Origin: an uncultured delta proteobacterium
Lineage (GTDB): Bacteria; Desulfobacterota; Syntrophia; Syntrophales; Fen-1087
Direction: 5' to 3'
Assembly (NCBI GenBank): GCA_963743175.1
Contig: CAVUOQ010000004.1
Span: 58,646 to 122,645, forward strand
Length of the DNA stretch: 64,000 bases
Shown piece after piece: positions 18,434 through 45,229 of this stretch (the stretch's first letter is position 1; each line of letters opens with the position of its first letter). The notes beneath the pieces are model-generated. The model was not told where the DNA came from. It worked only from the letters and a program-made list of their open reading frames with translations, and searched no databases. The translations under genes and the position numbers were made by a program.

Positions 18434-18503
18434 AGAACGGTGAGGCAAACCGCAGAATCTGCATAATCTGAATGATATCAAACGAATGCGGAACATCCAT
18501 GCT

Positions 18504-18574
18504 ATGAATCAGATCCGAACCCTGTACTGGCAAGATAATGCGGTCGTCATGATCGACCAGAAGGCCCTGCCGCT
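18504..18574 (+). pseudogene. Truncated 5' fragment of mtnA (left junction of island)
   Basis: Encodes [24 protein letters not shown]; 65/71 nt identical to 36991..37061. Confidence 0.9.
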
Positions 18575-18613
18575 TGTTGATTTTACTGAATCTATAGCTT
18601 GCAGGCTTGAATA

Positions 18614-19891
18614 TCAATCAGCAGTTACCTGTACCAGGCCTTTTTCTATTGCCTGCGGAAAATCATTCAGGATACTTGCCACATCAAATGTGCTGTGTTG
18701 CACCAGGTTGATGCCTGAAGATACCAACATGATTCTATCACGGCCGGCCTGCTTGGCCTCGTAAACACCGGCATCAGCGAGACGGAGTACCTGCTCCCAG
18801 TTCAAAAGATCCGGCCTGTTAGGATTAAACGGAAATTGAGCATAGCCGATGGAGCAGGTCATTTTAATAGACTCCCCTGAAGGCAGTATGAATTTGTTTT
18901 GACGGAAATTGTCCTGTATGCGTTTAGCAATCTCTCTGGCTCCATCGGGTTGGTCATCGCGTGACACAATAACAAATTCTTCTCCACCCCAGCGGACAAT
19001 GATATCTGATTTTCTCACTGCTTGGTGGAGAATATCAGCAACCTGCTTTAATACTGCATCACCCGCGGCATGGCCATAAGTGTCATTCACATCTTTGAAG
19101 TGGTCAATATCAAGCATAAAAACAAACATGTTGTTTTCCGGGGACATGAGCGTTAATATTTGTTGATCATTCGTCCGGCTTCGGAGGATTTTATCCACCT
19201 CTTTATCCATAAAAGCTGATAAGAACCAGCGATTGGATAGCTTTGTCAGGCCGTCATTAAAAGCCATTTCATTCAATTCGAGAGACATCAAGACAGATTC
19301 ACTGCGTGATTTATATTGCTGTTTGATCATGATGATAAGCGTAACAGAATAGGAAATGATAAGCAGGAGCAATATCCAGGAACCCCATTCACGGCTGTCA
19401 ACGGCTGAGAGAATCCCCAGAGATAGGAGGTTAGGAACAACATACAAGGCATAGCAAAGCCTGCTTGATCCTGTACTGACCAGTGCAGCAGACATAATGC
19501 CGGCCTGGAAAACGATCAGGAGGCTGACTTTGGGCAGGGTCAGGGTTGGATAGGCTATAATATTCAATGCAGCAAGCCCGCTGCCTGTAAGAAGCGTGCC
19601 TGCGGCAAAGGACCAGTATCGTAAGTTGACAGATGCCCAGATGCCCTTAGCGCGCCACCCATACCACGCGGCAATGAGACGTGCGATGGTTATGATAATC
19701 AATGTGTAAAAGGTAATTTGCAGGACTGTATTGTTGTCAAATATTTCATCAATAATAATACGGAAAATAATTAAGGCGCTGAGCGTGGCAAAAATTGCCA
19801 TCCGGCTGCGGCGGTAAATATCTTTTAACAATTCGTCGCTAAGTTCGGCCTGATGCTTTTTATACAACTCTTGAAAGTGAACTTTGTCCAT
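18614..19891 (-). CDS. Membrane-anchored diguanylate cyclase (GGDEF)
   Basis: Multiple TM helices, DGLTKLSNR, DIDHFKDVNDTYGHAAGD, RWGGEEF. Confidence 0.92.
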   Translation of the reverse strand: MDKVHFQELYKKHQAELSDELLKDIYRRSRMAIFATLSALIIFRIIIDEIFDNNTVLQITFYTLIIITIARLIAAWYGWRAKGIWASVNLRYWSFAAGTLLTGSGLAALNIIAYPTLTLPKVSLLIVFQAGIMSAALVSTGSSRLCYALYVVPNLLSLGILSAVDSREWGSWILLLLIISYSVTLIIMIKQQYKSRSESVLMSLELNEMAFNDGLTKLSNRWFLSAFMDKEVDKILRSRTNDQQILTLMSPENNMFVFMLDIDHFKDVNDTYGHAAGDAVLKQVADILHQAVRKSDIIVRWGGEEFVIVSRDDQPDGAREIAKRIQDNFRQNKFILPSGESIKMTCSIGYAQFPFNPNRPDLLNWEQVLRLADAGVYEAKQAGRDRIMLVSSGINLVQHSTFDVASILNDFPQAIEKGLVQVTAD

Positions 19892-19932
19892 CTGTCACCG
19901 ACGGTTAGATAGCATAACCGTTTTTTATAGTT

Positions 19933-20215
19933 GAAGCATCCCACCTCGGCAATGCCGCCTGAAATATCCTGAGCAATCCCTAAAATACTGGACTGGGTCA
20001 TAAGGCGCGTGTCGGGTTGCCAAAAAATAATAGGTCTCGGAGGGAGTTATGGCAAACTACATGCACGGTTATGCCCCTATCCAGTTTTTGGGAGTATTAT
20101 TAAAACTATTTCCCCGCTTCTTCAGGCCTCAAATCTACGCAGTATTTCTATTTCTGAACGACTTCTTTCTTTGGCGGTTGCGTCATCAAACTAACAATGA
20201 TGAAAAATATGAACC
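19933..20215. repeat. Direct repeat copy 1 (palindromic intergenic element plus degenerate SSS 3' remnant)
   Basis: Matches 21802..22086; remnant reads FIFFIIVSLMTQPPKKEVVQK*KYCVDLRPEEAGK on the minus strand. Confidence 0.9.
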
Positions 20216-20290
20216 GCAAATGGCTGCTTAACGGCTTGTTGATTTTACTGAGTCTATCTCGTCTCACGTTTAAAAAAAGAAGGAAATTGC

Positions 20291-21622
20291 TTACTTTTTT
20301 TCCTTCTTTTTCCACTCATTTTTTCCTTCAATGACGCTGACTCCTTCATCAATCAGCTCCTGTACGTCTTTTCTCGTGTACCCGAGATATTTGTTCAGGA
20401 CCTCAAATGTTTCATGTCCGATGGGCTGGGCCAGCCATTTGATTCTACCGGGAGTACGGGAAAGTCTCGGTTGGGGCTGAGTTACCATCTGCTTGCCATA
20501 ATGCGGACAATCAAACTCAAAGAGGGTTTTCCTATCTTTATAGTTTTCGTCATTGACACAATCCCAAGGTGTCAAGATGCGACTGCAGGGGACACCGTGC
20601 CCCATGAACATTTTTTCCGCTTCGATTACTGTCATTTTCTTGGTCACGTCTTCGATGGCTCCGTAAATCTTTTCCTGAACCTCCATCGGCCCGAGGTCGA
20701 ACATCGATTTCAAACCCAGTTCATCAATAAGATCGCTTCGTTTCACAGCCTTCATGACATCCGTAAATAATCTCCATGCCGCCATTCCGACCCACAGCAT
20801 ACCGTCCTTGCAATGAACAAATCCGTATGGGGCTATACAGAATTCCCACGGCCCCTCAGCTAAAGGTTCATGATCTCTTTGAAGGATATGGGCCTCCATG
20901 AACCTGTAATCCAGCATGCGCATTCCGGCCTCGTTCTGAGTGACCTCGAGCATCTGTCCCTCACCTGTTTTTTTCTTGTGCCACAATGCCATCATGACAC
21001 CAATAACTCCATGATATGCTCCCGCATGGTCACAAAGCCAGAAACCAGCTTTGGTTGGCTCTCCTCCCAACTTATTACTTGTAATGGCTGCTATACCACT
21101 GGCACACTGACCGACAGGATCATACGATGGCCTATCTTTATACTTACCCCACTGGCCCCACCCACCTTCCCAGACATAGATCAGGGCAGGGTTGATTTTC
21201 TTCAAATCCCTATATCCGATACCGAGTTTTTCGAAGGTACCGGGTCTAAAGTTTTCTACAAGGATATCCACTTTCGCGACCAGTTTCTTTATGATTTCCC
21301 GAGCTTTCTCCGAATGGAGATCAAGCGAGATGTGGTGTTTATTGGTGGCGTGGTCAAGATAAGTCAGACCCGTTTCAATGCCTTGAACCGATTTGACTTT
21401 CGCGCAACCATAAGGTCCGATGTATCTGAACGCCTCTCCTCTCGGCCACTCGACCTTGATCACCTCGGCACCAAACAGGGCAAGATACTGCGGTACCTCA
21501 GGTCCCAGAATGTAGTTGGTGATGTCCAGCACCTTGATGTCATCCAATGCTTCAGGTTTTTCAAAGTGTTTTTCGGGATCAAATAGTTCTCTGCAGTACG
21601 CATCATACGGTTTATCTGGCAT
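20291..21622 (-). CDS. Family III (CaiB/BaiF) CoA-transferase
   Basis: ALDDIKVLD, FGAEVIKVE, DILVENFRPG, candidate catalytic Asp in WLCDHAG. Confidence 0.9.
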   Translation of the reverse strand: MPDKPYDAYCRELFDPEKHFEKPEALDDIKVLDITNYILGPEVPQYLALFGAEVIKVEWPRGEAFRYIGPYGCAKVKSVQGIETGLTYLDHATNKHHISLDLHSEKAREIIKKLVAKVDILVENFRPGTFEKLGIGYRDLKKINPALIYVWEGGWGQWGKYKDRPSYDPVGQCASGIAAITSNKLGGEPTKAGFWLCDHAGAYHGVIGVMMALWHKKKTGEGQMLEVTQNEAGMRMLDYRFMEAHILQRDHEPLAEGPWEFCIAPYGFVHCKDGMLWVGMAAWRLFTDVMKAVKRSDLIDELGLKSMFDLGPMEVQEKIYGAIEDVTKKMTVIEAEKMFMGHGVPCSRILTPWDCVNDENYKDRKTLFEFDCPHYGKQMVTQPQPRLSRTPGRIKWLAQPIGHETFEVLNKYLGYTRKDVQELIDEGVSVIEGKNEWKKKEKK

Positions 21623-21801
21623 ATGTATGCCCTCCTTCTCATGCAGATTAAGATTTTGTTGAGTTGATCCTTAAATGCCTATTCTGCTGCTTCCGATCAA
21701 AGCGCCAGTATCTTTATTGTAAAAAAGCCTAAAGTATTTCCCAAAATCAAGACAAAAAGAAAATTATTTGTCTCCTTTTTTTGATGTCCTTATTAGGAAG
21801 G

Positions 21802-22086
21802 GAAGCATACCGTCTCGGCAATGCCGCCTGAAATGCCCTGAACAATCCCTAAAATACTGGACAGGGTCATAAGGCGCGTGTCGGGTTGCCAAAAAATAAT
21901 AGGTCTCGGAGGGAGTTATGGCAAACTACATGCACGGTTATGCCCCTATCCAGTTTTTGGGAGTATTATTAAAACTATTTCCCTACTTCTTCACTTCTTC
22001 AGGCCATAGGTCTATGCAGTATTTCTGAACGACATCTTTTTTCGGAGGTTGCGTCAGCAGGCTCACAATAATGAAAAAAATAAACC
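21802..22086. repeat. Direct repeat copy 2 (palindromic intergenic element plus SSS 3' end)
   Basis: Matches 19933..20215. Confidence 0.9.
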
Positions 22087-23590
22087 CTATCGGTATCCAA
22101 TAGACCTGATGAGGCGTAGGAATCTTATTGGCCGGATCGCTAAGAAAGAACCAGTGCGCGCTTTTAAGAACGGCGTTTGCATAGAGCCATGCGAAGCTTG
22201 AACAGACTGTCATCACGAAAATGGTGGCGTATGCCGCCGCTTTCGTTGCTTTTTCCCACCAAATGCCCAGAATAAGTGGCGGTCCGATGGAGCAAAGGAT
22301 GACAAGGAAGGCCGCCCCGGAAATGTCGAGGACGAGAGCAGGCGGATTGATGGCTACGAGCCCACAGATAACAAGTACAACGGTAGTCATAACTTTTGTT
22401 ACCTGAACGGGCTTATTTTCCGCCCATTTGTTTCCGAACACTTTACCCATCAGATCGCGTCCCAACGTGACGTTGAGGACCATGGTCCAGCCGGCCACCG
22501 TTGACATCGAGATGGACAGACCGCCTGCAACAATGATTGCCATGAGCCACGGTGACCTAAGTGACTCAACGACTGCAAACATGGAATAGTCCGTGACCGA
22601 CGCGGCGCCGACGGCGTATGTCTTCTTCATATGCAGCAGGACACCGACGGCGTTTTTGATGCCTTCTGTTCCCATGAGCGGATGCGAGGCTTCAATCAGA
22701 GCCTTTGCAGCCGTTCCAATGATGAAAAGCCCCAGATACATGCCGCCACCGATGATAACTGCCCATGTCACGCTTCTGCGGGCCGCTTTAACATCCTGTG
22801 CGGTAAAAAAGCGCACAACGGTATACGGCATGGCTGCGAAACCATAGTGCCAGATAAAATAAAAACCGACCATCCCTGTCCACATTGCCATGAGTGGATG
22901 GGATACCTTGCCGCCGGCATGAGGTGTGTTGAAAAAGTTGGGGTTACTGGCCAGCGCCGCCTGCGTGAGTTCGTTTAAACCACCGTAATGGGTGATAATA
23001 ACGATGGCTGCAGCCAACGTCGCCACTGTCATGACCACACCCTGCAAAGCCGTTGAAAATGTCGTCGATACCATGCCGCCCCAGTAAATGTATATGAAAC
23101 AAACGCCTGCACCGATGAAAACGGCCAGTATATAGTTGATCTTGAGGATCGCAACCATGCACAGAGCCGTTCCGACGATTGATAGAATAACATAGGCAAA
23201 TCCCCCGATAATGGTCGGAATGGCCGCCGCCAGCCTCATCATCTTCGTATCATACCGGTCGGCATAGTAGTCGGTGAATGACGTGGGCGCATACTTGCGC
23301 ATGGGCGCTGCTGTCAGCAGTGTCGCGACCGGCAATCCGGCGATAACTCCGCACAATGCCCACCAGAAAGGATATGAAATCATAAAAATAAAGGCGGGCA
23401 AACCTAAAAAGGTGGCAGGGCTGAAATAAGTGGCCGCAAGCGCCGAACCGTTGATGAACGGCCCGACTTTTCGGCCGGCAACATAGTAATCAGAGGCATT
23501 CAAGCCGGCTTTTCTCGAAAACCAACCGATAGCCATGACTGCCACAAAATATAAGACCGCTCCCAATATGACAATTGGATCTGCTCCCAT
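21983..23590 (-). CDS. Sodium:solute symporter (ActP/MctC-like)
   Basis: DYYVAGRKV, AATYFSPATFLG, DYYADRY, many TM helices. Confidence 0.9.
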   Translation of the reverse strand: MGADPIVILGAVLYFVAVMAIGWFSRKAGLNASDYYVAGRKVGPFINGSALAATYFSPATFLGLPAFIFMISYPFWWALCGVIAGLPVATLLTAAPMRKYAPTSFTDYYADRYDTKMMRLAAAIPTIIGGFAYVILSIVGTALCMVAILKINYILAVFIGAGVCFIYIYWGGMVSTTFSTALQGVVMTVATLAAAIVIITHYGGLNELTQAALASNPNFFNTPHAGGKVSHPLMAMWTGMVGFYFIWHYGFAAMPYTVVRFFTAQDVKAARRSVTWAVIIGGGMYLGLFIIGTAAKALIEASHPLMGTEGIKNAVGVLLHMKKTYAVGAASVTDYSMFAVVESLRSPWLMAIIVAGGLSISMSTVAGWTMVLNVTLGRDLMGKVFGNKWAENKPVQVTKVMTTVVLVICGLVAINPPALVLDISGAAFLVILCSIGPPLILGIWWEKATKAAAYATIFVMTVCSSFAWLYANAVLKSAHWFFLSDPANKIPTPHQVYWIPIGFIFFIIVSLLTQPPKKDVVQKYCIDLWPEEVKK

Positions 23591-23611
23591 TTGAAATTCC
23601 TCCTTGCTGTA

Positions 23612-23854
23612 TCAGGATTTTTTTTCTAATTTTGCTTCTCTCTTTTCCTCCGAATAGGCATACAACCAGGCAACAAAGATAACTATCACGTAGCACGTCA
23701 TTAATGCATTGTAGATGTAGCAGGCTGGAATGCCCAGGAACATCCTCAGGGGAAAGCCCGGAATGTTCCATTCCAACATCATGAATACGAACACCCATCC
23801 ATAGGTTAACAATAATCCAACCCAAAAAACTTTTGGCATCCCTTTGAACATCAT
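23612..23854 (-). CDS. Small two-TM protein, probable SSS accessory subunit
   Basis: 80 aa with two hydrophobic segments, strong RBS, directly upstream of SSS. Confidence 0.7.
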   Translation of the reverse strand: MMFKGMPKVFWVGLLLTYGWVFVFMMLEWNIPGFPLRMFLGIPACYIYNALMTCYVIVIFVAWLYAYSEEKREAKLEKKS

Positions 23855-24057
23855 AATTACACCTCCTTACCTTAGAATCACTTTTTTCGGCTGACCGGCA
23901 TTTCCGGCGACCCGGTTTAAAGGTTGAAAACCTGCAACTCCTTTTTATTACCCATCCCGGCACCACCCCCTTTACTTTGAACTTCAAGCAGTCACGACGA
24001 ACTGCCTCTATCTTTTTTAAGAATTCTAAATCCGGGCGCAACTGCGGTGATCAATTC

Positions 24058-25215
24058 TTACTTGAGACTGTTCATGATATCTCTCGCAATGATCACTCTC
24101 TGAATCTGATTGGTCCCTTCATAAATGGAGGTGATTCTTACGTCTCTCGCGTATCTTTCTATGGGAAATTCTGCGGTGTAACCGTATCCGCCTAACATCT
24201 GGAGCGCCCGGTAGCAGGCCCTTTCTGCCGCCTCTGTTGCGTAATATTTTGCCATAGATGCCGCTCGGGCAAATTGTGTTCCCATCTCCTTTTTAAAAGC
24301 GGCGTTCATGAGAAGAAGTCTTGCGGCCTCCAGTTCCGTGTAGGATTCGGCGATCATCCACTGGATGGCTTGAAAGTTGGTAATGGCCTGATCAAACTGG
24401 ACTCTGTTTATGGCATACCGTGTAGCATAATCTATCGCAGCAAGCCCGATTCCAAGTCCGATGGATCCCACACCGATCCGGCCTCCCGCCAGCTCGCCTA
24501 CGGCTACCCTGAACCCGTCATTGAGCTTTCCCATCAGCGCATCCTTGGGAATGCGGCAATCTTCAAAATGTAGCTCATTAGTCACCGATGCATGCTGCCC
24601 CATCTTATGCTCGGCCCTGCCCACGTTCAGGCCTTGTGTGCCGTTCTCCACCAGAAAGCAGCTTATTCCTTTTCCTTTTGGCACAGTCTTGTCGGTGACG
24701 GCCCAGACGACAAATACCCCGGCATATTCGGCACTCGAGATAAATAACTTTGACCCGTTCAAAATCCATGAGTTTCCATCCAGGACCGCCTGGGTGCGCA
24801 ACGATGCCGGATCGGACCCCGCCATCGTCTCGGTCAGAGCAAATCCACCGGCATAATATTCTCCCGAACATATCTTGGGGATATATCTATTTCTTTGTTC
24901 CTCCGAGCCCACCGCCTGGATCACTTCGTTCACCATGTTATTGACGGACATGGTCACGGCCGTAGAGGCGCAGGCCCTGGCTATTTCTATCACGGCGACA
25001 CTGAAGGCCACGACGCCCGCTTCCGACCCGCCGTATTCCGCCCTGACGTTGATTCCCATCAGACCGAGCTCTGCCAGCTTGCGGAGATTTTTCAGATAGG
25101 TTTCCCTGTCACCGACCTGATCCAGTTTCGCCGCCACGGGTTCCAGTTCCGACCTGGCGAAATTCCGCGCCGTGTCCTGTATCATTCGTTGATCTTCCGT
25201 TAAATCCAGATGCAT
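24058..25215 (-). CDS. Acyl-CoA dehydrogenase
   Basis: FALTETMAGSD, LNGSKLFIS, FQAIQWMIA, QMLGGYGY, IYEGTNQIQR. Confidence 0.95.
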   Translation of the reverse strand: MHLDLTEDQRMIQDTARNFARSELEPVAAKLDQVGDRETYLKNLRKLAELGLMGINVRAEYGGSEAGVVAFSVAVIEIARACASTAVTMSVNNMVNEVIQAVGSEEQRNRYIPKICSGEYYAGGFALTETMAGSDPASLRTQAVLDGNSWILNGSKLFISSAEYAGVFVVWAVTDKTVPKGKGISCFLVENGTQGLNVGRAEHKMGQHASVTNELHFEDCRIPKDALMGKLNDGFRVAVGELAGGRIGVGSIGLGIGLAAIDYATRYAINRVQFDQAITNFQAIQWMIAESYTELEAARLLLMNAAFKKEMGTQFARAASMAKYYATEAAERACYRALQMLGGYGYTAEFPIERYARDVRITSIYEGTNQIQRVIIARDIMNSLK

Positions 25216-25236
25216 ATTATCTTCCTACCTGTCTGC

Positions 25237-26577
25237 TCAGCTTTTGGCCTGCATATAAAAATTTCGTTTCAATGCCGCTCGAAGTTCTTCTCGAACATCC
25301 GGATGGGCAATGTTAATCAGGGCCTCCGCCCTCTGACGCCTTGATTTATATCTCAAGTGCGCAACGCCGTACTCCGTCACCACATAGTCCGCGTAATGCC
25401 GGGGGATCGTTACCGGTGAACCGAGGGGCAATTCGGCAACGATGGAGGAAATGAATTTCCCTTCCTTGGATTTCCTTGACGAGTACATCAGGCTGATTCC
25501 CTTTCCCCCTTTCGAATGAAAAGCGCCCAGTTGGAAATCTAACTGTCCGCCGCTACCGCTCACCATCCGGTGACCAACGCCCTCAGAGCAGACCTGGCCG
25601 CTCAGATCGATGATGAGGCCCATATTCATGGCCACCATGTTCGGATGTTGCGCAATAAAGGCGGGACTGTTTGTGTATGAACAGGGATAAAACTCGCAGG
25701 TCGGATTCTCGTGGACATACTCATACATGCCCTGATCGCCGATACAGAAGGTGGCGGTGGTGACGCCCTTATGAAAAGGCTTCCTGGCATTTGTTACGAT
25801 TCCTTTTTCCACCAGTTGCGGAAGTCCGATGGGAAACATTTCCGTGTGGATGCCAAGATCGCGTATTCCCTCGAGCCCCGAAATCACCGCTTCGGGGATC
25901 TGCCCGATGCCCATCTGGATCGTGTCGCCGTCCTTGATCAGTTCGAGGACGTATTCCCCGACCTTCTTTTCTCTCTCGCCCGGCGCTGCCCTGCCGACAG
26001 CCGGGATTTTGGATGAGTTCTCCACAAAGAAATCAAATTCGGTAACGTGCAGCCAGTTGTTGCCGAAGATGACCGGCAGCTGGTCGTTCACTTCCCCGAT
26101 CGCGACACGCAGCTTACCGGATGCTCTGCCCTGACGCATGACCTCCATGGAATAAAAATTCGTCAGGCCGAGGTTCACCCATCCCTGTTCATTGGGCGGC
26201 GTGATCATGCAGATGTAAACATCGGACCATCTGGCGTAACGATCCCCCAAGTCATGGCTCTGCTCCACATAGAAATCAGGGAATCGGGTTTCAAGAATCT
26301 TCCGGGTCAGAGGCATGCCGAAGCAGGGGTGGTAGTTGATGTGGCCGTCCAGTTTTAACATAAAATCCGGATCGTAGAGCTTGGATGGGCGGACTTGAAC
26401 AGAATCATTGATGGTCACTTCCTTGAGCTCCGGCCATCGGTCCAGGATGCCATCGAACATCGCGGGCGAGCAGGCGCCGATGCCCAGACCAATGCCCACC
26501 ATTTCTCCGGATCTGATCTGTTTGGCTGCTTCCTCAAATGAAACCAGTTTTTTCTTATAATCCTCTTTCCAATTCAT
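25237..26577 (-). CDS. Acetyl-CoA hydrolase/4-hydroxybutyrate CoA-transferase family
   Basis: DGDTIQMGIGQIP, LGIHTEM, SGSGGQLDF, DYVVTEYGVA. Confidence 0.9.
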   Translation of the reverse strand: MNWKEDYKKKLVSFEEAAKQIRSGEMVGIGLGIGACSPAMFDGILDRWPELKEVTINDSVQVRPSKLYDPDFMLKLDGHINYHPCFGMPLTRKILETRFPDFYVEQSHDLGDRYARWSDVYICMITPPNEQGWVNLGLTNFYSMEVMRQGRASGKLRVAIGEVNDQLPVIFGNNWLHVTEFDFFVENSSKIPAVGRAAPGEREKKVGEYVLELIKDGDTIQMGIGQIPEAVISGLEGIRDLGIHTEMFPIGLPQLVEKGIVTNARKPFHKGVTTATFCIGDQGMYEYVHENPTCEFYPCSYTNSPAFIAQHPNMVAMNMGLIIDLSGQVCSEGVGHRMVSGSGGQLDFQLGAFHSKGGKGISLMYSSRKSKEGKFISSIVAELPLGSPVTIPRHYADYVVTEYGVAHLRYKSRRQRAEALINIAHPDVREELRAALKRNFYMQAKS

Positions 26578-26814
26578 CGTTGCCTCCTTGCCGGTTAAAA
26601 TAAAGGGTGAGGTCGTCTTGACTCTGTAGATCGAAAAATAGAATCGCCCCCCTGATGGAATACAATCTTCCTCCGGGCATGGTCATTCCGTCGCTAAATC
26701 TTTAATCTGGACTCGCGAGTCGCTTCCGGTAAGCTGTATGGGCCGTTAATAGGGAAAACAAGATGGAAAGACAATATTAATAGTCTTTTAATAATTATTA
26801 AGATAAAATTAATA

Positions 26815-28566: not shown

Positions 28567-28645
28567 ATGGATGCTCCACCGTCATGATGACTGATTTTTT
28601 TCGTGATATTTATATATATTTACATACCCATAAATGATCGTTGCG

Positions 28646-30415: not shown

Positions 30416-30832
30416 GGCTCTTCTCCTTGCTGTGTTGTAGTTCCAAGCATGTCATAGAGACTAAATTATCAATTTCGCCGTTTTTGAGCCTTTTCTGCTT
30501 TGAGCTGCTTTCATACCATCAAACATGCATGTTTGCAACGAGCAACATTTGTGATATGCATGCATGCAAATTGCGCTATATATTTAGTGATATCAATCTG
30601 ATAATGTCATTTCAGCGAATCCTGATCGCTGTTTGATATGCAAATCCGCATGTCTTGCAGCGTCCCCGGTCGAACTTCCCTTTCCCGATACGTTGCCGAC
30701 CAGCGATCTCCCATCCGGCGCCCCTGTGTCAATTAATATTCTTTATATTCGATAGGTTGTCAATCTGCTTGCGCCTTTTCAAAGGGCTGATTCATGGCGG
30801 CGTCATCACTGCCTGAAAAGGCTGAAAAGTAA

Positions 30833-30848
30833 TGGCATATAAACTGCA
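30833..30848 (+). promoter_or_regulatory. Sigma-54 (-24/-12) promoter of the TRAP operon
   Basis: TGGCATATAAACTGCA = GG-N10-GC, divergent from a sigma-54 activator. Confidence 0.75.
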
Positions 30849-30996
30849 AACCGTAGGTTGAGTCCTGAATTTCCACATCCCTGTCAGGGCGATCAGCAAA
30901 AGGAGGACGTTGAGGCAGGAGAATCTTCCTTCACGGGAAAAGTCGAAGGCGGTTTGGGGGCATTTTTCGTAAAATCAAACACATTGGAGGTGAGGT

Positions 30997-32094
30997 ATGA
31001 AAAGAAAACTCGGTTTGTTTGCATTGATGTCAGCGTTGGTTTTTTTCCTGGTTTTATTCATGCAAGCCGCGGCGTCGGCCGAGACGATCCGGTGGCGCAT
31101 GGCGACGGGGCGGACCCCCGCATTGACGCCCTATCATGAAGCCGACTTGAACCTGGCTAAAATGATCAATGACATGAGCGGCGGTCGGCTGGTCATTACC
31201 GTTCACCCTGCAGGCGAGCTCATGCCGGCATTCGAGGTTTTCGACGCCACAAGAAACGGTACGATTCAGATGGCGTCGGCATGGTCCACATACTGGACGA
31301 CGAAAAATACCGCTTTCGATCTTTTCTGCTCAATGGGATTCATGATGACGGCCTCCGACTGGATGACATGGCTCTACAATGGTGGCGGGCTCGCGCTGGG
31401 GCAGGAATTGTACGCAAAATACAATATGAAGTTCTTCCCGATGGCTGTTACCGGACCGGAATCAGGGTTCCGACTCAGGAAACCCATCCACACCATTGCT
31501 GATTTCAAGGGGCGGAAGCTCCGGACGGGCGTGCTCCAGACGATCTGGATCCTGCAGCAGTTGGGCGCCAGCCCGGTCAGGATACCGGGAGGCGAGGTGT
31601 ACATGGCGTTAAAGCTTGGAACCATCGATGGGGGGGAGTACGGTGTTCCCTCAACGGACTGGAATATGAAGTTTCAGGAAACAACCAAGTATTGGATGAC
31701 GCCGGCCGGCTGGCATCAGGTCGGAACGGTTTCCGATTTGATGATCAACATGGATGCCTGGAATAAACTGCCCGTTGACCTCAAGGCCATCGTCGAAACG
31801 GCCGCCCGGGCGAATATGTCATGGTCCTACGCAAAAGCCAACTGGGATGCTATTGCAGCGGTGAAAAACTTCCAGAAAGCGGGGATCAAGGAAAGCAAAC
31901 TCGATAAAGCAGCACAGGAAAAGATAGAAAGCCTCGCCATGCAGTTCATGGAGAATGAATCCGCCAAAAATCCCGACTACGCGAAGATCGCCAAGTCCAT
32001 GGTCAAATATCTTAAGGAATTTGACAGCGTCCGCAATCTCGAAGGCCGCTTTGCAGCGGGAACAAGTCTCAAGAAATATCCCAACATCAAGTAA
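30997..32094 (+). CDS. dctP: TRAP transporter substrate-binding protein
   Basis: Signal peptide, MSGGRL..HPAGEL, DFKGRKLR, GGEVYMAL..GTIDG. Confidence 0.9.
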   Translation: MKRKLGLFALMSALVFFLVLFMQAAASAETIRWRMATGRTPALTPYHEADLNLAKMINDMSGGRLVITVHPAGELMPAFEVFDATRNGTIQMASAWSTYWTTKNTAFDLFCSMGFMMTASDWMTWLYNGGGLALGQELYAKYNMKFFPMAVTGPESGFRLRKPIHTIADFKGRKLRTGVLQTIWILQQLGASPVRIPGGEVYMALKLGTIDGGEYGVPSTDWNMKFQETTKYWMTPAGWHQVGTVSDLMINMDAWNKLPVDLKAIVETAARANMSWSYAKANWDAIAAVKNFQKAGIKESKLDKAAQEKIESLAMQFMENESAKNPDYAKIAKSMVKYLKEFDSVRNLEGRFAAGTSLKKYPNIK

Positions 32095-32107
32095 AGTATT
32101 GCACGAA

Positions 32108-32153
32108 TCATGAGGCCCCGCTCCGGGTTTCCCCGGCAAGCGGGCCTCATGAT
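32108..32153 (+). terminator. Stem-loop after dctP (mRNA stabiliser or partial terminator)
   Basis: TCATGAGGCCCCGC...GCGGGCCTCATGA inverted repeat. Confidence 0.55.
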
Positions 32154-32193
32154 GACCGCAATGACAAAACCTGATTTGCACAAGGGGGGTCTT

Positions 32194-32709
32194 ATGATGT
32201 TGCAGCAACTGATGAAGGTTTGTGACGGCATCAATGAATGGACCGGTCGAACGGTGGCCTGGTTGGTATGGATCGTGATGATCCTGTGCGTATTTGAAGT
32301 GATCACGCGGCGTATCTTCAACGCTCCCCACATCTGGTCCTACGACGTGATCAATGTCTTCTACGCCGTCAACTTCATGCTTCTGGGGGGCTATACGCTG
32401 CTGAAACACGGACATGTATCTGTTGATATTTTTTCCGTGCGTCTTTCGAAAAAATTACAGTCTCTGCTACAAATCATCACCTATCTCATTTTTTTCTTTC
32501 CCTTTGTCATCGTGATTTTTTATGTGGGATGGAAGACCGCCATGGTATCCTGGATGGATTTCGAACGGACATCCATCGGATTGCCCCTCATCATGCCCGT
32601 CATGAAGACGGCCATACCGGTCGCTGCATTGTTGCTTTTCATCCAGGGCATTCCTGAACTGACAAGATCCCTCATTTCTTTCATGAAGGAGGATCAGCCT
32701 GATGTTTAA
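32194..32709 (+). CDS. dctQ: TRAP transporter small permease
   Basis: EVITRRIFNAPHIWS, HGHVSVDI, four TM helices. Confidence 0.9.
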   Translation: MMLQQLMKVCDGINEWTGRTVAWLVWIVMILCVFEVITRRIFNAPHIWSYDVINVFYAVNFMLLGGYTLLKHGHVSVDIFSVRLSKKLQSLLQIITYLIFFFPFVIVIFYVGWKTAMVSWMDFERTSIGLPLIMPVMKTAIPVAALLLFIQGIPELTRSLISFMKEDQPDV

Positions 32710-34029
32710 TATTGATCCCATCACAATCACGTTCCTGATGTTTGGCGGACTCCTCTTAGGCCTGTTTCTCGGCCATTCTCTTGCTTTTGTATTCGGCGGG
32801 CTCGCGGTGATCTTCGGATACATCACGTGGGGGCCGGTCTGTTTTTCTCTTTTCTCCAGTCGCATCATCGGCTTAATGGATAATTTCATCCTGGTGGCGA
32901 TTCCCATGTTCATTCTGATGGCAAACCTGCTCAATAGCTCCGGCGTCGCGGACAATCTTTTCGATTCACTGCGGTACCTGATGGGCCCGATACGCGGAGG
33001 CATCGCGCTGGCCGTGGTGATCGTCTGTACGCTCTTTGCCGCCTGCACGGGCGTGATTGCCGCTTCCATCGTCTCCATGGGGCTGCTGGGGCTTCCGATC
33101 ATGATCAAATACGGCTATGATAAAGAACTGGCCTGCGGGACCATTTGCGCGGGAGGGTCGCTGGGCATCCTCATTCCACCCAGCATCATGCTCGTTGTCA
33201 TGGCCGACATGACCGGGCTTTCGGTGGGCAAACTCTTTGTCGGCAGCCTTGTCCCCGGCCTCTTGCTTGCCTTTTTATACGCCCTTTATATTCTGGTTTT
33301 GTGCGGGTTCAAGCCGGAGCTGGGACCGCCCCTGTCAAAAGAAGAGAGAGACAAGGTGTCCATGCCCCAGGTCCTCAAGATGGCGCTGGTATCCCTGGTC
33401 CCGCCTGTCATTCTCATCCTGGGCGTTCTGGGCTCGATATTCACCGGGGTAGCCACAGCGACTGAAGCTTCTGCCGTCGGGGCGTTCCTGGCGCTGCTGA
33501 TGACCATAGCATACGGGCGTTTCAGCTGGAAGATGCTGGAAGAAGTGACTTTTTCTACGGCAAAGACCGTCGCCATGGTCATGTTTATCCTGGTGGGCGC
33601 CACCTGCTTTACCGGTGTATTTATGGGTAGCGGAGGAGGCAATGCAGTGTCAACTTTCATCATGGGACTCGGTCTCGGAAAATGGGGCACCCTTTTCATT
33701 ATGCATTTTGTCATTTTTATTTTGGGATGTTCATCGACTGGATCGGCATCGTCTATCTGACTTTTCCCATATTTATCCCGATTGCGGCGGAGCTCGGTTT
33801 TGATCCGCTCTGGTTTGTGGTGCTTACAGCCGTCAATCTCCAGTCTTCCTTTCTGACGCCGCCTTTCGGATATGCCCTTTTTTTCATGAAAGGCATTGCG
33901 GCCAAGGATCTCACAACGGCGCAGATCTACCGCAGCGTCGTTCCTTTTGTCATTATCATTCTCGTCGGAGTACTGCTGTGCGTCTTGTTCCCAGAGTTGA
34001 TAACAACGCCCGCTGAATGGATAGAATAG
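32702..34029 (+). CDS. dctM: TRAP transporter large permease (apparent frameshift near 33726)
   Basis: LVAIPMFILM, GSLGILIPPSI, ATATEA; continues as GMFIDW..FLTPPFG in the next frame. Confidence 0.9.
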
Positions 34030-34056
34030 GTTAGACTCAATGAAAGGGCAAATGAA

Positions 34057-34683
34057 ATGGAAAGGAAACGGATCGGCATCGTGTTATTTGAGAATGTTGA
34101 AGTTCTCGATTTTTGCGGCCCTTTTGAAGTCTTCTCCTCCACCCGTCTCAATGAGGAAAGGAGACTTGAAGAACCATCGCCATTTGAAGTGCTGTTGGTC
34201 GCAGAGAAAAACGACACTGTGCTCACAACGGGAGGTATGAAAGTTATTCCAGACCATACATTTGAGAGTTGCCCAAAGTTGGATATTCTTGTCGTTCCCG
34301 GTGGTTGGGGTATTCGCAAAGAACTAAAAAACCCTGCAATGCTCAATTGGTTGCGTCATCGCGCCTCGGAGGTCGAAACCCTGACATCGGTTTGTACGGG
34401 TTCAATGCTTCTCGGGTTTGCTGGCTTACTTGAAGGGTGCCACGCAACAACCCACTGGCGCTCGCTCGATTGGATGCGTGAATCGTTTCCATCGGTAACG
34501 GTTGAGTATGACAAGCATGTTGTCGAAGATGGGCGGATATTCACCTCCGCAGGCATTTCTGCAGGGATCGATATGGCGCTCATGGTTGTCGCTCGCTATT
34601 GCGGTGAAGTCATTGCGCGAAGCACAGCCAAGCGCATGGAATACCCGTATCCTGAAAATAATGCCCGCAGAATTGAGTTCTAG
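34057..34683 (+). CDS. DJ-1/PfpI family protein
   Basis: EVLDFCGPFEVF, LVVPGG, SVCTGS, TSAGISAGIDM. Confidence 0.92.
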   Translation: MERKRIGIVLFENVEVLDFCGPFEVFSSTRLNEERRLEEPSPFEVLLVAEKNDTVLTTGGMKVIPDHTFESCPKLDILVVPGGWGIRKELKNPAMLNWLRHRASEVETLTSVCTGSMLLGFAGLLEGCHATTHWRSLDWMRESFPSVTVEYDKHVVEDGRIFTSAGISAGIDMALMVVARYCGEVIARSTAKRMEYPYPENNARRIEF

Positions 34684-34743
34684 CCTAACCATCTAATACA
34701 TATGGACCCGTGGTGCCGCGGGCCGGTGATCGTTTCGATATGA
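34683..34743 (+). other. Degenerate attC-like site
   Basis: GCCTAAC overlapping the stop codon, central stem CCCGTGG/CCGCGGG, GGTGAT, degenerate R' GATATGA; GTTAGAC core at 34030..34036. Confidence 0.45.
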
Positions 34744-34874
34744 ACCGGCCTGAGTGCACATGCCGTTAAACAATGAAGCATCTCGAAACGATGATTCGCC
34801 GTAGAAAATAAAGGTATCTGCCAAAGCAAGAAAAATGAACTCGCAAGATCACAATATCATTCTCAACAGGAGGT

Positions 34875-36794
34875 ATGCCGGTCATGAGAAAGAATAAAAT
34901 TGTAACCCCCGCCGAAGCAATGGCTGAGATCAAGGATGGCGATGTCCTGGCCGTTGAAGGCTTCCTCGGAAGCGGTACGGCGGAAGAACTCTGCCTGGCC
35001 CTCGAGAAAAGATACCTGGAGACGAAGGCCCCAAAAAATCTGACCTTGATTCATTCCTCTGGGCCGGGGGATGCGGCAACACGCGGCATCAATCATCTCG
35101 CCCACAAGGGATTGTTCAAACGCGTGATCTCCGGCCACTTCGGCCTGGTTCCAAAAATCGGAAGGCTTGTCCTCGAAAACGAATTTGATACATACAACTT
35201 TCCGCAGGGCATTCTCACAAACTTCTATCGGGCCGTGGCCGGAAATCGTCCCGGATTTTTTTCCAAGGTCGGTCTGGGGACATTCGTTGATCCACGTATC
35301 GAGGGTGGCAAAATCAACGAAAAAGCCAGGGAGGATCTGATCCGCATCATCGAAATCGACGGACAGGAGTGGCTCTTCATGAAGTCATTCCCCATCGACG
35401 TGTGTTTTGTCCGCGGGACGACGGCGGATATCACCGGCAATGTTTCGATGGAAAGGGAGGTGCTGACCGTGGACGCCCTGTCGACGGCCATGGCGACACA
35501 CAACAGTGGCGGCATCGTCATCGCACAGGTGGAGCGAATCGCCAACAGGGGTTCGTTGCGCCCGAAGGACGTGAAGATACCGGGTATTCTGGTCGACTAT
35601 GTGGTAGTCGCCGCACCGGCCAACCACATGCAGACCTTCGCGACACAGTACAGCCCGTCTTTTGCAGGGGAAGTCCGTATACCCATGAAATCAGGACAGA
35701 AGCTCGCCCTTGACGAGCGTAAAATCATCGCGCGCCGGGCGAACTTGGAACTGCGGCCCTACGACATCATCAACCTGGGCATCGGAGTGCCTGAGGGCGT
35801 CTCCGTGGTTGCCAACGAGGAAAAGATCCTGGATTATCTGACGATGACCGTGGAGCCCGGCATTATCGGCGGCATGCCGACGGGAGGCCTCGATTTCGGC
35901 GCTGCCGTAAACCCTGAAGCGATCATCGACATGCCCGACCAGTTCGATTTCTATGACGGCGGTGGACTGGACCTCGCCTGTCTGGGCATGGCGCAGTGCG
36001 ACGCGCAGGGCAACGTCAATTCCAGCAAATTCGGCCCTCGCCTGGCCGGCTGCGGCGGTTTTATTGACATCAGCCAGAATGCGAAAAAGACCCTATTTGT
36101 GGGCACATTTACGGCGGGGGGGTTGGAGATCGCGATTGAAAACGGCAGGCTTAAAATTATCCACGAAGGCAAAACCAAGAAATTTATCAAGCAGGTCGAT
36201 CAGATCACGTTCAGCGGTAGAATAGGCAGCACGAGCGGCCAGGATATCTTTTATATGACCGAACGGTGCATTTTGAAGCTGATAAACGGAAAGGTGGAAT
36301 TAATCGAAGTCGCACCCGGCATCGATATCGAAACAGACATCCTGGCGCATATGGATTTTCGTCCTGTCATGAATGACGTCAAGATCATGGATGCAAGAAT
36401 TTTCAAACCCTCTGCGATGGGCATTCGTAAGGAATTCCTCAAATACGATATTCAGAAACGCAGTGACTTGTTAACTGATCAAAACACATTGTTCCTCAAC
36501 CTCAAAGGACTGGAAGCTGAAAATATCCAGGATATCGAGATCGTCAAAGAGGTGATCGAACAGAAGTGTGCCGAAGGAGGAGGAAAAATCAAGGCAGTCG
36601 CGACGTACGCCTTCGACATCGATGAAGAGCTGATGGACGCTTACGTGGAAATGGGTGCGTATATAGCCAAAAATTATCACGCCACCGTCTCACAATTTGG
36701 AAATCGTGAAGAAATGAAAGAGAAACTCGGCGACGAATTTGTGAAGCGCGCACTTGAATCTAAAATACACAAACCCCGGACATGTAAATATTGA
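34875..36794 (+). CDS. Acyl-CoA:acetate/propionate CoA-transferase (YdiF/Pct family) with C-terminal extension
   Basis: GLGTFVDPR, INLGIGVPE, catalytic EPGIIGG, FYDGGGLD, GCGGFIDISQNA. Confidence 0.93.
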   Translation: MPVMRKNKIVTPAEAMAEIKDGDVLAVEGFLGSGTAEELCLALEKRYLETKAPKNLTLIHSSGPGDAATRGINHLAHKGLFKRVISGHFGLVPKIGRLVLENEFDTYNFPQGILTNFYRAVAGNRPGFFSKVGLGTFVDPRIEGGKINEKAREDLIRIIEIDGQEWLFMKSFPIDVCFVRGTTADITGNVSMEREVLTVDALSTAMATHNSGGIVIAQVERIANRGSLRPKDVKIPGILVDYVVVAAPANHMQTFATQYSPSFAGEVRIPMKSGQKLALDERKIIARRANLELRPYDIINLGIGVPEGVSVVANEEKILDYLTMTVEPGIIGGMPTGGLDFGAAVNPEAIIDMPDQFDFYDGGGLDLACLGMAQCDAQGNVNSSKFGPRLAGCGGFIDISQNAKKTLFVGTFTAGGLEIAIENGRLKIIHEGKTKKFIKQVDQITFSGRIGSTSGQDIFYMTERCILKLINGKVELIEVAPGIDIETDILAHMDFRPVMNDVKIMDARIFKPSAMGIRKEFLKYDIQKRSDLLTDQNTLFLNLKGLEAENIQDIEIVKEVIEQKCAEGGGKIKAVATYAFDIDEELMDAYVEMGAYIAKNYHATVSQFGNREEMKEKLGDEFVKRALESKIHKPRTCKY

Positions 36795-36864
36795 CGGCAG
36801 CGAAAAGAAGTTCATCTGCCTCGTTGTGTTTCATCTTTCGTCGTTGCGGCGTGCGCCCAAATAC
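36792..36864. repeat. Partial family A element
   Basis: TGACGGCAGCGAAAAGAAGTTCATCTGC...CTTTCGTCGTTGCGGCGT resembles the reverse complement of 6600..6668; starts at the upstream gene's TGA. Confidence 0.65.
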
Positions 36865-36952
36865 GTTTGGCGGTTCTATCAGTCTTAACGAAAGCGCGCG
36901 TACGCAGTTTATATTCCGCACAAAGTTGCTATCGCGCCATACCATTATTTCT

Positions 36953-36981
36953 TTGACACATATCTATGATCATCTTATACT
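36953..36981 (+). promoter_or_regulatory. Sigma-70 promoter for mtnA
   Basis: TTGACA-N17-TATACT, 9 nt before the ATG; no Shine-Dalgarno. Confidence 0.7.
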
Positions 36982-36990
36982 CTCCTCCAA

Positions 36991-38040
36991 ATGAATCAGA
37001 TCCGAACCCTGTTCTGGGAAGACAATAAAGTCGTCATGATCGACCAGAAGGCCCTGCCGCTGGAGGAACGCACGCTTGTCTGCACGCGATACGAAGAAGT
37101 CATCGCGGCCATCAACGATCTGACCGTCCGGGGCGCCCCGGCCATCGGCGTGGCCGCCGCCATGGGCATCGCTCTGGGTGCGCGACAGATTCAGGCGGCA
37201 AACCCCGAGGCGTTTCAAAGGGATTTCATGGCGATCTGCGACACATTCGCCCGGACCCGCCCGACGGCCCGCAACCTCTTCTGGGCCATCGAACGCATGA
37301 AACGATGCTTCGAAAAGACGCTGGCATCAGACACATCCATAATCCCCTCTGACATCAGCCAAGCCCTCGTCGCCGAGGCCATCGGGATTTGCGAAGAGGA
37401 CATCGCCATCAACCGGAAGATGGGCGCCAACGGCCGGTCCCTGATCAAGGACGGCGACCGCATTCTGACCCACTGCAATGCCGGCGCGCTGGCTACGGCC
37501 GGATATGGCACGGCCCTCGGCGTCATGCGCGCGGCCTGTGAGGAAGGGAAAAAAATCCACGTCTTCGTGGATGAGACGCGGCCGGTTCTGCAGGGGGCGC
37601 GGCTGACGGCCTGGGAGCTCATGAAGGAAAACATTCCCGCCACGCTTATTACCGACAATATGGCCGGGTTTCTCATGCAGCGCGGGAAAATCGATCTGGT
37701 CATCACGGGAGCGGATCGCATCGCCGCAAACGGCGACACGGCCAACAAGATCGGTACCTATGCCCTGGCGGTTCTGGCAAAGGAGAACAACATCCCTTTC
37801 TATATCGCGGCGCCTATCTCGACGATCGACCTGTCCCTGAAAACCGGCGACGAGATCCCTATTGAAGAACGCAGCAGCGAAGAAGTCGTTGCTTTTCAAG
37901 GCGCTCGGAGCGCCCCCGTCGGTATGCCGGTCTATAACCCGGCCTTCGACGTGACCCCGCACCGCTACATCACGGCCATCATCACCGAGACCGGCGTCAT
38001 CCGGCCTCCTTTTGCGACAAATCTGTCCGGTATTTTTTAA
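36991..38040 (+). CDS. mtnA: Methylthioribose-1-phosphate isomerase
   Basis: [52 protein letters not shown]. Confidence 0.95.
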
Positions 38041-38160
38041 AAGGCCTCTTGTGTTTTGCCTGTGTCAGATTTTCCGACCGGCGGGATGACTCTTAAGGGA
38101 GGTCGTTTGAGGGAAACAAGCAGCTTTATTTCTTTCCTGCAATCTTCCTGTATGACGCTG

Positions 38161-38877: not shown

Positions 38878-38909
38878 GGGGCTTCAACCTCCTTTTTCCC
38901 GTTTAAACA

Positions 38910-40377: not shown

Positions 40378-40398
40378 AGGTACCTCCATTGTCCGATA

Positions 40399-41199: not shown

Positions 41200-41426
41200 A
41201 GGCCCTCATGAATCCGTTTTCCTCGAATGACAACCGGTCTGTTTCAGGAATCTCAATCCACAATGTTATCGATGCGAATAAGCTACCACGGTTCGCGCCG
41301 GAAATCCATTATGATTCACCAGTTAACGCTGGGATCGGTGAGGGAAAATTCCTCAATTACGGCGGGGACTTTACAAAACCGCCGGAGATTCCAATTGTCC
41401 TGTCTCCCCGATGCACCGTACGGGCT

Positions 41427-45218: not shown

Positions 45219-45229
45219 CTCATTCGCTC

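Follow-up and report, generated by a model that had tools for sequence, protein, structure and literature searches.

Here, we report that in an uncultured deltaproteobacterium a block of ~18.4 kb has inserted inside mtnA, the foreign DNA lying within the first 76 nt of the gene. Both this insertion and the rebuilding of the gene from a second 5′ end had been described in the original prediction; the rebuilt gene also has a promoter of its own. The analysis covered a stretch of 64,000 nt from one contig, hereafter the window. Ordinary host recombination, acting a single time, seems to have produced the block, which does not look like a new kind of mobile element, and we hold it to be somewhat more probable than the contrary that it was inserted independently of any integrase, by the host's own recombination and at a hot spot that has no mobile elements.

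The block is bracketed by a direct repeat of 71 nt (18504-18574 and 36991-37061), the two copies of which are 92% identical and lie 18,487 nt apart from start to start. The six mismatches fall at repeat positions 23, 28, 33, 37, 38 and 39, the final 32 nt are identical, and a search of the window finds this 32-nt core at exactly two places, versus 0.00 expected from 100 shuffles; sequence comparison thus reproduced the repeat placement, the six mismatches and the identical last 32 nt that had been noted earlier. The left copy lies in mtnA′, a leftover comprising the first 73 nt (24 codons) of mtnA (18504-18576, plus strand), which is separated from the gatB stop codon (18433) by a 70-nt spacer. 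While the truncation of this copy had been correctly recognized, its endpoint had been set at 18574, and the match to the mtnA of relatives runs through 18576, two bases farther, since most relatives read CCGCTTG followed by AGG. The right copy forms the first 71 nt of an intact mtnA (36991-38040, plus strand) encoding S-methyl-5-thioribose-1-phosphate isomerase, and the identification of the full gene at the far end of the block is secured by its 349-aa ORF, which passes the equivalog model TIGR00512 with 446.7 bits (cut-off 279).

The leftover allele is near those of the relatives G001, G003 and G004 and of the contigs L108 and L109. At positions 28-39, the intact gene carries an allele elsewhere seen in G006, and its remainder is closest to G004 and G003; this allele switch is a short tract and at most a tentative sign of homologous recombination in the flanking core gene. 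The right copy has 8 differences from L108 in 76 nt, against 6.5% overall, and both 5′ copies have in common a private C at position 13. This comparison of alleles weakly suggests that the 5′ end of the right copy could be foreign. The 29-nt core of mtnA is present in 42 of the 121 genomes of the order, as a single copy in 41 and as two copies only here, and because coding constraint keeps it across the order, the identity between the two copies says little.

On the left, the core flank is gatB (17000-18433, plus strand), which reads as four frame pieces because of three assembly-specific single-base insertions (17113, 17834 and 18210). gatB and mtnA are conserved core genes that flank the site and are neighbours across the order; in 26 of the 29 loci of relatives, no more than 1.5 kb separates mtnA from an upstream gatB. 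The native gatB-mtnA spacer (18434-18503, plus strand) is common to the metagenome contig L109 and partly to G004, G001 and G006; a DUF486 (PF04342) gene, present in this spacer in G001 and G006, is deleted in the present genome. Contig L109 gives one unbroken match to window positions 16064-18576 and then continues into a full mtnA, while in L108, which has the specific downstream genes of the present genome, gatB abuts mtnA. The original prediction had pointed to empty gatB-mtnA sites in relatives as the means of checking it, and these 26 loci together with L108 and L109 provide them. Comparison with L109 further shows that the recipient spacer and mtnA nt 1-76 were fully retained, with no deletion of recipient DNA.

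The two borders of the block differ in kind. At the left joint (18572-18595, plus strand), mtnA and a 24-nt island sequence have GCTTG (18572-18576) in common; the 24-nt sequence recurs at 20234-20257 and is there preceded by AACG, not by mtnA. Relatives read CCGCTTG followed by AGGAAC, and the island-internal copy reads CGGCTTG followed by TTGATTTT, so that GCTTG is a putative shared microhomology of 5 nt, as read from the island-internal 24-nt copy and not from the donor. Microhomology of 3-10 bp is given as the usual mark of illegitimate joints in the account of PMC3240628. We also considered whether the 24-nt repeat marks an integron-like cassette and dropped this idea, as just two copies exist in the 11 family genomes, both in the island. 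At the right border, an island-borne promoter-like site, TTGACA-17-TATACT (36953-36981, plus strand, 11/12 matches), ends 9 nt ahead of the mtnA ATG and is also present in G003, and from this distance a leaderless or near-leaderless mtnA transcript is predicted. We rejected a local tandem duplication in which the start of mtnA was copied and other DNA later inserted between the two copies, because the sequence upstream of the right copy is this promoter shared with G003 and not a copy of the native spacer. Foreign sequence meets mtnA at ~2 nt or less from the ATG in G003/G000 and in G004.

Within the block, G+C is 0.44-0.57, compared with 0.57-0.61 in the flanks, and a catabolic operon makes up its left ~10 kb. 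Next to the leftover, and convergent on it, lies a gene for a membrane-anchored GGDEF diguanylate cyclase (18614-19891, minus strand), of which no relatives were found in the metagenome search. There follow on the minus strand a family III CoA-transferase (20291-21622), a sodium:solute symporter of the monocarboxylate/acetate type (21983-23590), an acyl-CoA dehydrogenase (24058-25215), a CoA-transferase of the acetyl-CoA hydrolase/transferase family (25237-26577), a LuxR-type HTH protein (26815-27579) and a PAS sensor (27585-28481), the latter two being one fused regulator of 590 aa in G017, and a sigma-54 activator (28646-30415); a search for sigma-54 promoters gave 0 matches at ≤1 mismatch to the consensus. 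The right part encodes a TRAP transporter, DctP/Q/M (30997-34029, plus strand), with DctM split near 33726, a DJ-1/PfpI gene (34057-34683) that is missing from G003, and a 639-aa CoA-transferase (34875-36794, plus strand), and it also contains a degenerate copy (36786-36865, plus strand) of a dispersed, structured repeat of ~80 nt that has 24 matches in the genome. The family III CoA-transferase is 94% identical in amino acids and 92% in nucleotides to a gene of G017, which belongs to another family of the order, and the best identity in four congeners is ≤38% in amino acids; the symporter is 83% identical in amino acids to a paralogue elsewhere in the genome. The foreign CoA-transferase is itself bracketed by a nested partial duplication, wherein 19933-20215 (minus strand) copies 21802-22086 and comprises a 181-nt spacer and ~100 nt from the 3′ end of the symporter gene. 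This nested duplication is of the same style as that of mtnA and was counted for the reading as host recombination.

These affinities are not uniform along the block. G003 has a counterpart of the right part (~8 kb) at the same chromosomal place, namely 28668-34033 and 34737-36761 at 90-91% identity, and its left border differs, consisting of a remnant (3′ part) of the DUF486 gene without mtnA′ and cutting off the final codons of the sigma-54 activator. The other 10 genomes of the family all lack 18575-28667 as a block. The homologous operon of G017 lies in an ordinary chromosomal context, and near-identity to it is confined to the CoA-transferase. In G004, the spacer is common with the present genome for ~34 nt beyond the gatB stop codon (to about window position 18467), after which other CoA genes follow. 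Six arrangements are hence seen between gatB and mtnA: the DUF486 gene only (G001 and G006), a bare spacer (L109), no spacer (L108), a 7.6-kb block (G003), other CoA genes (G004) and the 18.4 kb of the present genome. Soil metagenomes of two studies contain island segments at 95-99% identity, and one soil contig joins 28599 to 28651, which places both halves of the island side by side in another population. Judging from these comparisons, the block is a mosaic of catabolic modules that differ in origin.

It is quite unlikely, in our estimate, that the island-bearing state is old in the clade and that the empty L109 and L108 and the G004 variant are later deletions, for example between the 71-nt repeats, with the G003 form as a deletion derivative. 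Direct repeats of 71 nt are able to mediate precise deletion, the G003 border that clips the end of the sigma-54 activator resembles a deletion end, and the soil contig linking 28599 to 28651 with both halves in another population would agree with an old island. However, adjacency of gatB and mtnA is the order-wide state (26/29 loci), the 3′ remnant of DUF486 is kept in G003 and missing from the present genome, and the DUF486 deletion joint of the present genome is also found in the island-free L109 and in G004. By this distribution of remnant and joint, neither the G003 form nor the present one derives from the other by deletion alone, and the same initial insertion event would still be required.

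That the junctions were created by a chimeric contig during assembly of this metagenome-assembled genome is highly improbable. The assembly has 19 contigs and is 85.8% complete, single-base indels disrupt gatB and DctM, and probably also the PAS-LuxR regulator, and the best public run contains 0.10 of the sampled words and so gives no independent read support. Four public runs hold short contigs of relatives only, among which no listed contig bridges 18576/18577, and their joints that skip the island have sides of <30 nt and thus neither support nor refute the junctions. Against a chimera, however, the left joint ties mtnA nt 76 to unrelated sequence and therefore offers no shared repeat that could mislead an assembler, and the stray fragment and the gene at the other end of the island, 18.4 kb away, are both mtnA, which a random chimera would not be expected to give. 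The right junction of promoter and ATG is moreover found independently in G003, and the island segments at 95-99% identity come from soil metagenomes of two separate studies.

The absence of a recombinase between the repeats, already noted in the original prediction, is borne out by the searches. The 16 island ORFs have no match to recombinase or transposase families of Pfam or to the integration category of PHROGs, and no integrase or transposase family was matched in the Pfam scan of 64 of the 66 window ORFs of ≥90 aa, the two omitted ones both being gatB pieces. In six-frame searches, there is no PF00589 match anywhere on the contig (C4), and none to PF00239 in the genome; the PF00589 matches of the genome, two ORFs of ~320 aa, one broken copy and one fragment, are all on other contigs. 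Rfam gave no match at E ≤1 in 14000-42000, and neither a tRNA nor a tmRNA was found in the window, hence the site is not an RNA-gene target. No report of mtnA as an attachment site was found in a limited literature search, and such reports may exist.

A site-specific integrative island, with an attP carrying the promoter and the first 71-76 nt of mtnA and with a tyrosine or serine recombinase that was lost or acted in trans, is accordingly an unlikely explanation, although it would account for the direct repeats with their 32 identical nt, the truncated target, the regenerated gene with an island-borne promoter, the G+C of the block below that of its flanks, the relatives with empty sites, and the joining of foreign DNA to mtnA at the ATG in the G003 and G004 island types as well. 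Neither a recombinase nor a remnant of one exists on the contig, the PF00589 matches being elsewhere; the mtnA duplicate occurs in no other genome of the 121 searched; in G003, which has part of the island, the left border differs and no attL is present; ordinary catabolic modules make up the mosaic cargo; and the 29-nt core is kept across the order by coding constraint, so that its identity between the copies carries little weight. The proposal that a discrete integrative element or satellite used mtnA as an attB-type target is not supported, given the mosaic block, the differing left border in G003, the other cargo in G004 and the putative microhomology at the left joint. The duplicated mtnA 5′ ends that it proposed to look for did not recur, two core copies existing only here among the 121 genomes. 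Among the three origins that had been offered, the evidence favours homologous recombination. We consider it very unlikely that a family of integrase-less cargo islands, moved in trans, uses the first 40-76 nt of mtnA as a true attachment site. If it did, each island would supply its own promoter and replacement 5′ end, with the recombinase encoded elsewhere, the three different cargos at the mtnA ATG in G000/G003 and G004 would be alternative passengers of one system, and the present genome would be the sole one still keeping attL.

We therefore return to integrase-independent insertion by host recombination, and propose the following course for it. The gatB-mtnA spacer of this genus would be a hot spot of gene turnover without mobile-element genes, into which foreign or congeneric DNA with genes for acyl-CoA and organic-acid catabolism could enter without a site-specific recombinase. 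The incoming DNA would terminate in its own promoter and mtnA start, and the donor would carry AACGGCTTGTTGATTTT to the left of the GGDEF gene, with the block adjoining mtnA. First, the fragment may have been circularized, or one of its ends joined, by illegitimate joining at the GCTTG microhomology, a site common to mtnA nt 72-76 and to the far end of the island. Subsequently, a single RecA-type crossover with the resident mtnA, somewhere in its first 76 nt, could have integrated it. The resident promoter-proximal 73 nt would thereby be left dead behind gatB (18504-18576), and the full mtnA would be rebuilt 18.4 kb downstream behind the island-borne TTGACA/TATACT promoter, a rebuilding that would uncouple mtnA from the gatCAB operon. 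The circular intermediate, the host RecA as the enzyme and the order of these events are what we infer from the structure of the locus.

This course has experimental parallels. In the E. coli experiments described in PMC3240628, 56 of 60 recombinants had a partial duplication of the homologous locus, the duplications in the 14 that were sequenced spanned 109-950 bp, and they were attributed to a single crossover with a re-circularized, truncated molecule. Many hot spots in the survey of PMC5635113 are described as being without mobile elements, with recombination seen in the flanking core genes. Several points count against host recombination. A site-specific integrase would leave an equal topology, and sequence alone cannot name the enzyme. 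The 76 nt are a short homology for RecA, below the 109-950 bp of the E. coli duplications, and in classical homology-facilitated illegitimate recombination, as summarized in PMC3240628, recipient DNA is usually deleted and not duplicated. Random insertion leaves unexplained the foreign/mtnA junctions at ~2 nt from the ATG, which would fit islands that each carry a replacement 5′ end.

The locus is a readable natural fossil of a metabolic block entering a chromosome without mobile-element machinery, in an uncultured soil deltaproteobacterial lineage, where comparable insertion events are usually inferred just statistically, from hot-spot surveys. It has shifted mtnA, a housekeeping gene of methionine salvage, from the gatCAB operon to an island promoter. 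It also calls for caution in island prediction, namely that direct repeats, a truncated target and low G+C are insufficient proof of an integrase-driven element.

Compared with known systems, the block resembles attP-type islands, prophages and ICEs in its end repeats, truncated target, regenerated gene and empty site in relatives. However, neither the element and its surroundings nor the rest of the contig encodes an integrase, G003 as the other carrier does not share the borders, the 121 genomes show no second case, and the replaced part is the 5′ end plus promoter. With the orphan arrays of Rhs, CDI and T6SS loci, as they are described in PMC5361080, it has in common that a homology-anchored incoming module displaces a gene end and an orphan remains. 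In those arrays, 3′ ends and immunity genes are displaced and selection is thought to keep the orphans, whereas here it is the 5′ end of a housekeeping gene, and the orphan is without evident use.

Homology-facilitated illegitimate recombination, or the re-circularized single crossover of PMC3240628, offers the likeness of one-sided homology with a putative microhomology at the other joint and of a homologous locus that is partly duplicated, with the copies bracketing the insert. The experiments reported there involved inserts of ~1 kb and duplications of 109-950 bp, compared with 18.4 kb and 71-76 nt here, and the present case arose naturally, in a soil bacterium that is uncultured. The classical linear form would moreover be expected to delete recipient DNA, and none is deleted here. 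Finally, the locus resembles the hot spots free of mobile elements (Oliveira, Touchon and Rocha 2017, PMC5635113) in its core flanks, at least four content states, lack of integrase and transposase and strain-specific metabolic cargo. Double homologous recombination in the flanks would leave no scar of the mtnA type, while here a readable scar is retained within the flanking core gene itself.

In the genome under study, gatA (15540-17000) and gatB (17000-18433) precede a 70-nt spacer, after which the first 24 codons of mtnA begin at 18504. This start (18504-18574) recurs as a 71-nt direct repeat at 36991-37061, where the right copy opens an intact mtnA of 349 residues scoring above the TIGR00512 equivalog cut-off (446.7 bits vs 279). 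The mismatches between the copies fall at positions 23, 28, 33, 37, 38 and 39; the last 32 nt match throughout and form a core that occurs twice in the window against 0.00 copies expected by shuffling. Repeat and intact gene bear out the original prediction that the start of mtnA is broken off and then regenerated with a second 5′ end. The truncation stands, but its end, first placed at 18574, lies two bases further right, because most relatives read CCGCTTG followed by AGGAAC and the left copy is thus counted as mtnA through 18576.

Among 40 related genomes searched, 29 mtnA orthologue loci were found, and the gatB end lies inside the 1.5-kb flank upstream of mtnA in 26 of them, the exceptions being the congeners G003 and G004, and G027. 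The congeners G001 and G006 have the order gatB, a 123-aa DUF486/DMT_6 gene (PF04342), a ~70-nt spacer and mtnA. The metagenome contig L109 matches window 16064-18576 in a single block (89.5%) that continues directly into full mtnA, which is the arrangement expected before insertion, and in the metagenome contig L108, the closest relative found (93.5% over 36991-39463, with the specific downstream genes of G000, the genome under study, also present), gatB abuts the mtnA ATG, its stop overlapping the mtnA start. The contiguous gatB-mtnA pair by which an insertion was to be checked is therefore found in relatives, and these empty sites indicate that the ancestral arrangement, gatB-spacer-mtnA, received a DNA insertion. 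That the island is instead old, with the empty sites arising by later deletions, is improbable, because an identical DUF486 gene deletion joint is common to G000 and the island-free L109, while G003 keeps a DUF486 remnant.

Three distinct small deletions occur between gatB and mtnA (L108 291-310; L034 2905-2995; window 18434-18470), every one at a short repeat: the spacer loss in L108 at ATGCT, the DUF486 gene loss in G000, G004 and L109 at CAAACC, and an internal DUF486 deletion in G003. A second variable stretch directly downstream of mtnA (38053-41430) encodes a VTT/DedA-type membrane protein, an N-terminally short pyridine nucleotide-disulphide oxidoreductase and a fatty acid hydroxylase; it is common to L108 up to at least 39463 and absent in G001 and G006, and in G003 and L109 ~1.9 kb of other DNA takes its place. 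Elsewhere in the window, a HigB-like toxin with an HTH antitoxin-type partner (44916-45508) adjoins an 803-aa protein with WD40 repeats and a caspase (Peptidase_C14) domain (45835-48246).

The ~18.4-kb island, with a G+C of 0.44-0.57 vs 0.57-0.61 in its flanks, encodes on the minus strand a membrane GGDEF cyclase (18614-19891), a family III CoA-transferase (20291-21622), a sodium:solute symporter (21983-23590), an acyl-CoA dehydrogenase (24058-25215), an acetyl-CoA hydrolase/transferase-family enzyme (25237-26577), a LuxR HTH and PAS sensor (26815-28481) and a sigma-54 activator (28646-30415), and on the plus strand a TRAP transporter (30997-34029), a DJ-1/PfpI protein (34057-34683) and a 639-aa CoA-transferase (34875-36794). 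No Pfam match to an integrase or transposase was found in 64 of the 66 window ORFs of at least 90 aa (the two omitted are gatB pieces), the PHROGs integration/excision category was empty for the 16 island ORFs, and six-frame searches of the genome gave four matches to PF00589, none on contig C4, which carries the window at 58646-122645, and zero to PF00239; the predicted lack of a recombinase between the repeats is thereby confirmed. Neither a tRNA gene nor an Rfam match was found at the insertion site.

In G003, 28668-34033 and 34737-36761 are present at 90-91% identity, the core DNA flanking the block is 84-90% identical, and the same 47 nt precede the mtnA ATG; its left border is the stop codon of a DUF486 gene 3′ remnant, with no mtnA leftover. 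G004 shares the spacer for ~34 nt past the gatB stop, continues with a CoA-binding/ligase-type gene, and carries upstream of mtnA a different acetyl-CoA hydrolase/transferase gene, similarity to the window beginning 2 nt before the ATG. The left 10.1 kb (18575-28667) is absent as a block from all 10 other family genomes, which hold paralogous pieces only (64-81%). A homologous operon is present in the genome G017, which belongs to another family of the order, and comprises a PAS-LuxR regulator, two CoA-transferase types, an acyl-CoA dehydrogenase and a GGDEF protein; the operon is ~1.26 Mb away from the gatB-mtnA pair of G017, and its 11 scanned ORFs include no recombinase. Its DNA is 70-73% identical to the island except for the family III CoA-transferase, at 92% (94% for the protein), which suggests that a gene-sized piece was transferred between families recently (20284-21662; L190). 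In four congeners, no match to this CoA-transferase exceeds 38% amino acid identity. Soil metagenome contigs match several island segments at 95-99% identity, and soil metagenomes also contain a G003-like form that lacks the DJ-1 gene. All this makes the block a mosaic of catabolic modules at a spot whose content varies between close relatives.

The foreign CoA-transferase is flanked by a 283-nt duplicate, 19933-20215 copying the symporter 3′ end and a 181-nt spacer at 21802-22086. The 181-nt non-coding part, with only two copies in the genome, is better conserved (95-100% identical) than the coding part, ~100 nt of symporter 3′ end at ~82%. A dispersed ~80-nt repeat (36786-36865; loci L059-L081) has 24 matches in G000, the island copy being the most degenerate, and many in congeners; it is predicted to form nested hairpins and then a terminal hairpin (22 pairs, three with compensatory changes) and has no Rfam match.

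The proposal that mtnA is an attB-type target is not supported. The 29-nt conserved repeat core, sought with up to three mismatches in 121 genomes of the order, is present in 42, once in 41 of them and twice in G000 only, so that the intended search for duplicated mtnA 5′ ends returned this one genome; likewise, a protein search of 40 related genomes found an extra N-terminal mtnA fragment only in G000. The core encodes 10 residues of the mtnA product, which explains its conservation across families, and its identity in the two copies therefore does not indicate a recombinase core site. No account of mtnA serving as an attachment site turned up in the literature searched.

At the left joint, relatives read CTGCCGCTTG followed by AGGAAC, whereas G000 reads CTGCCGCTTG followed by TTGATTTTACTGAATCTAT. 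A 24-nt sequence of this joint occurs again at 20234-20257, there after TTAACG, with two copies in total across 11 family genomes. If the internal copy mirrors the incoming DNA, the joint would fall in the 5-nt stretch of microhomology GCTTG; illegitimate joints are described as usually marked by 3-10 bp of microhomology (PMC3240628). On the right, a promoter-like TTGACA-17-TATACT (11/12 matches), common to G003, ends 9 nt before the mtnA ATG. At positions 28, 30 and 36-39 the right copy has the allele otherwise found in G006, and mtnA from ~nt 86 on is closest to G004 and G003 (nt 151-300: 96-97% vs 83-84% for G006). Parentage may thus change somewhere between nt 39 and nt 86, although the tract is short and a private C at position 13 is common to both copies.

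The assembly (2.51 Mb, 19 contigs, 85.8% complete) looks like an unpolished long-read one. Its sole gatB is in four frame pieces, with assembly-specific single-base insertions at 17113, 17834 and 18210 that are absent from G003, G004 and L109 and sum to 3 nt, which restores the original frame in the last piece; the breaks are probably assembly error, a real pseudogene being the alternative. Further signs of assembly indels are the split DctM, where relatives' soil contigs have one base more behind 33726, in the overlap of two ORFs (33682-33760), and the PAS and LuxR ORFs (26815-28481), which form one 590-aa protein in G017. The structure itself is very unlikely to be a chimeric join, since the left joint has no shared sequence that could mislead an assembler, the stray fragment comes from the very gene that ends the island, and the right junction is independently present in G003. 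Public read runs each held at most 0.10 of the sampled words, and none of the listed contigs bridged 18576/18577.

The locus has the topology of a Campbell-type single crossover, in which a circular molecule bearing the cargo, the promoter and mtnA nt 1-76 would recombine with the resident mtnA, and both an integrase and host recombination can give it. In the E. coli experiments described in PMC3240628, linear DNA homologous at one end mostly integrated after re-circularisation, through a single crossover that depended on recA, with partial duplication of the homologous locus in 56 of 60 recombinants (109-950 bp in the 14 sequenced). We somewhat favour an integrase-free route by host recombination because of the missing recombinase, the unique event, the differing borders, the microhomology joint and the second partial duplication, taken together. 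Against it, 76 nt of homology is a short stretch for RecA, homology-facilitated illegitimate recombination in its classical linear form causes deletions and not duplications, the donor DNA would be represented here only by the internal 24-nt copy, and in two island types the foreign sequence joins mtnA no more than ~2 nt from the ATG, as would fit islands bringing their own 5′ end. An integrative element with a site-specific recombinase therefore keeps a small share of probability, but is unlikely in view of the absent recombinase, the single occurrence and the borders that vary between carriers.

In relatives, mtnA lies close behind gatB (overlapping it in L108) and is therefore probably co-transcribed with gatCAB; in G000 and G003 it stands behind the predicted island promoter, whose 9-nt spacing predicts a leaderless or near-leaderless mtnA transcript. 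The orphaned native spacer is now directed into the 3′ end of the GGDEF gene. The gatB-mtnA spot fits the description of transfer hot spots without mobile elements given in PMC5635113, and the locus is best placed among kinds already known, as a further example of such a hot spot and of a recombination scar, rather than in a new class of element.
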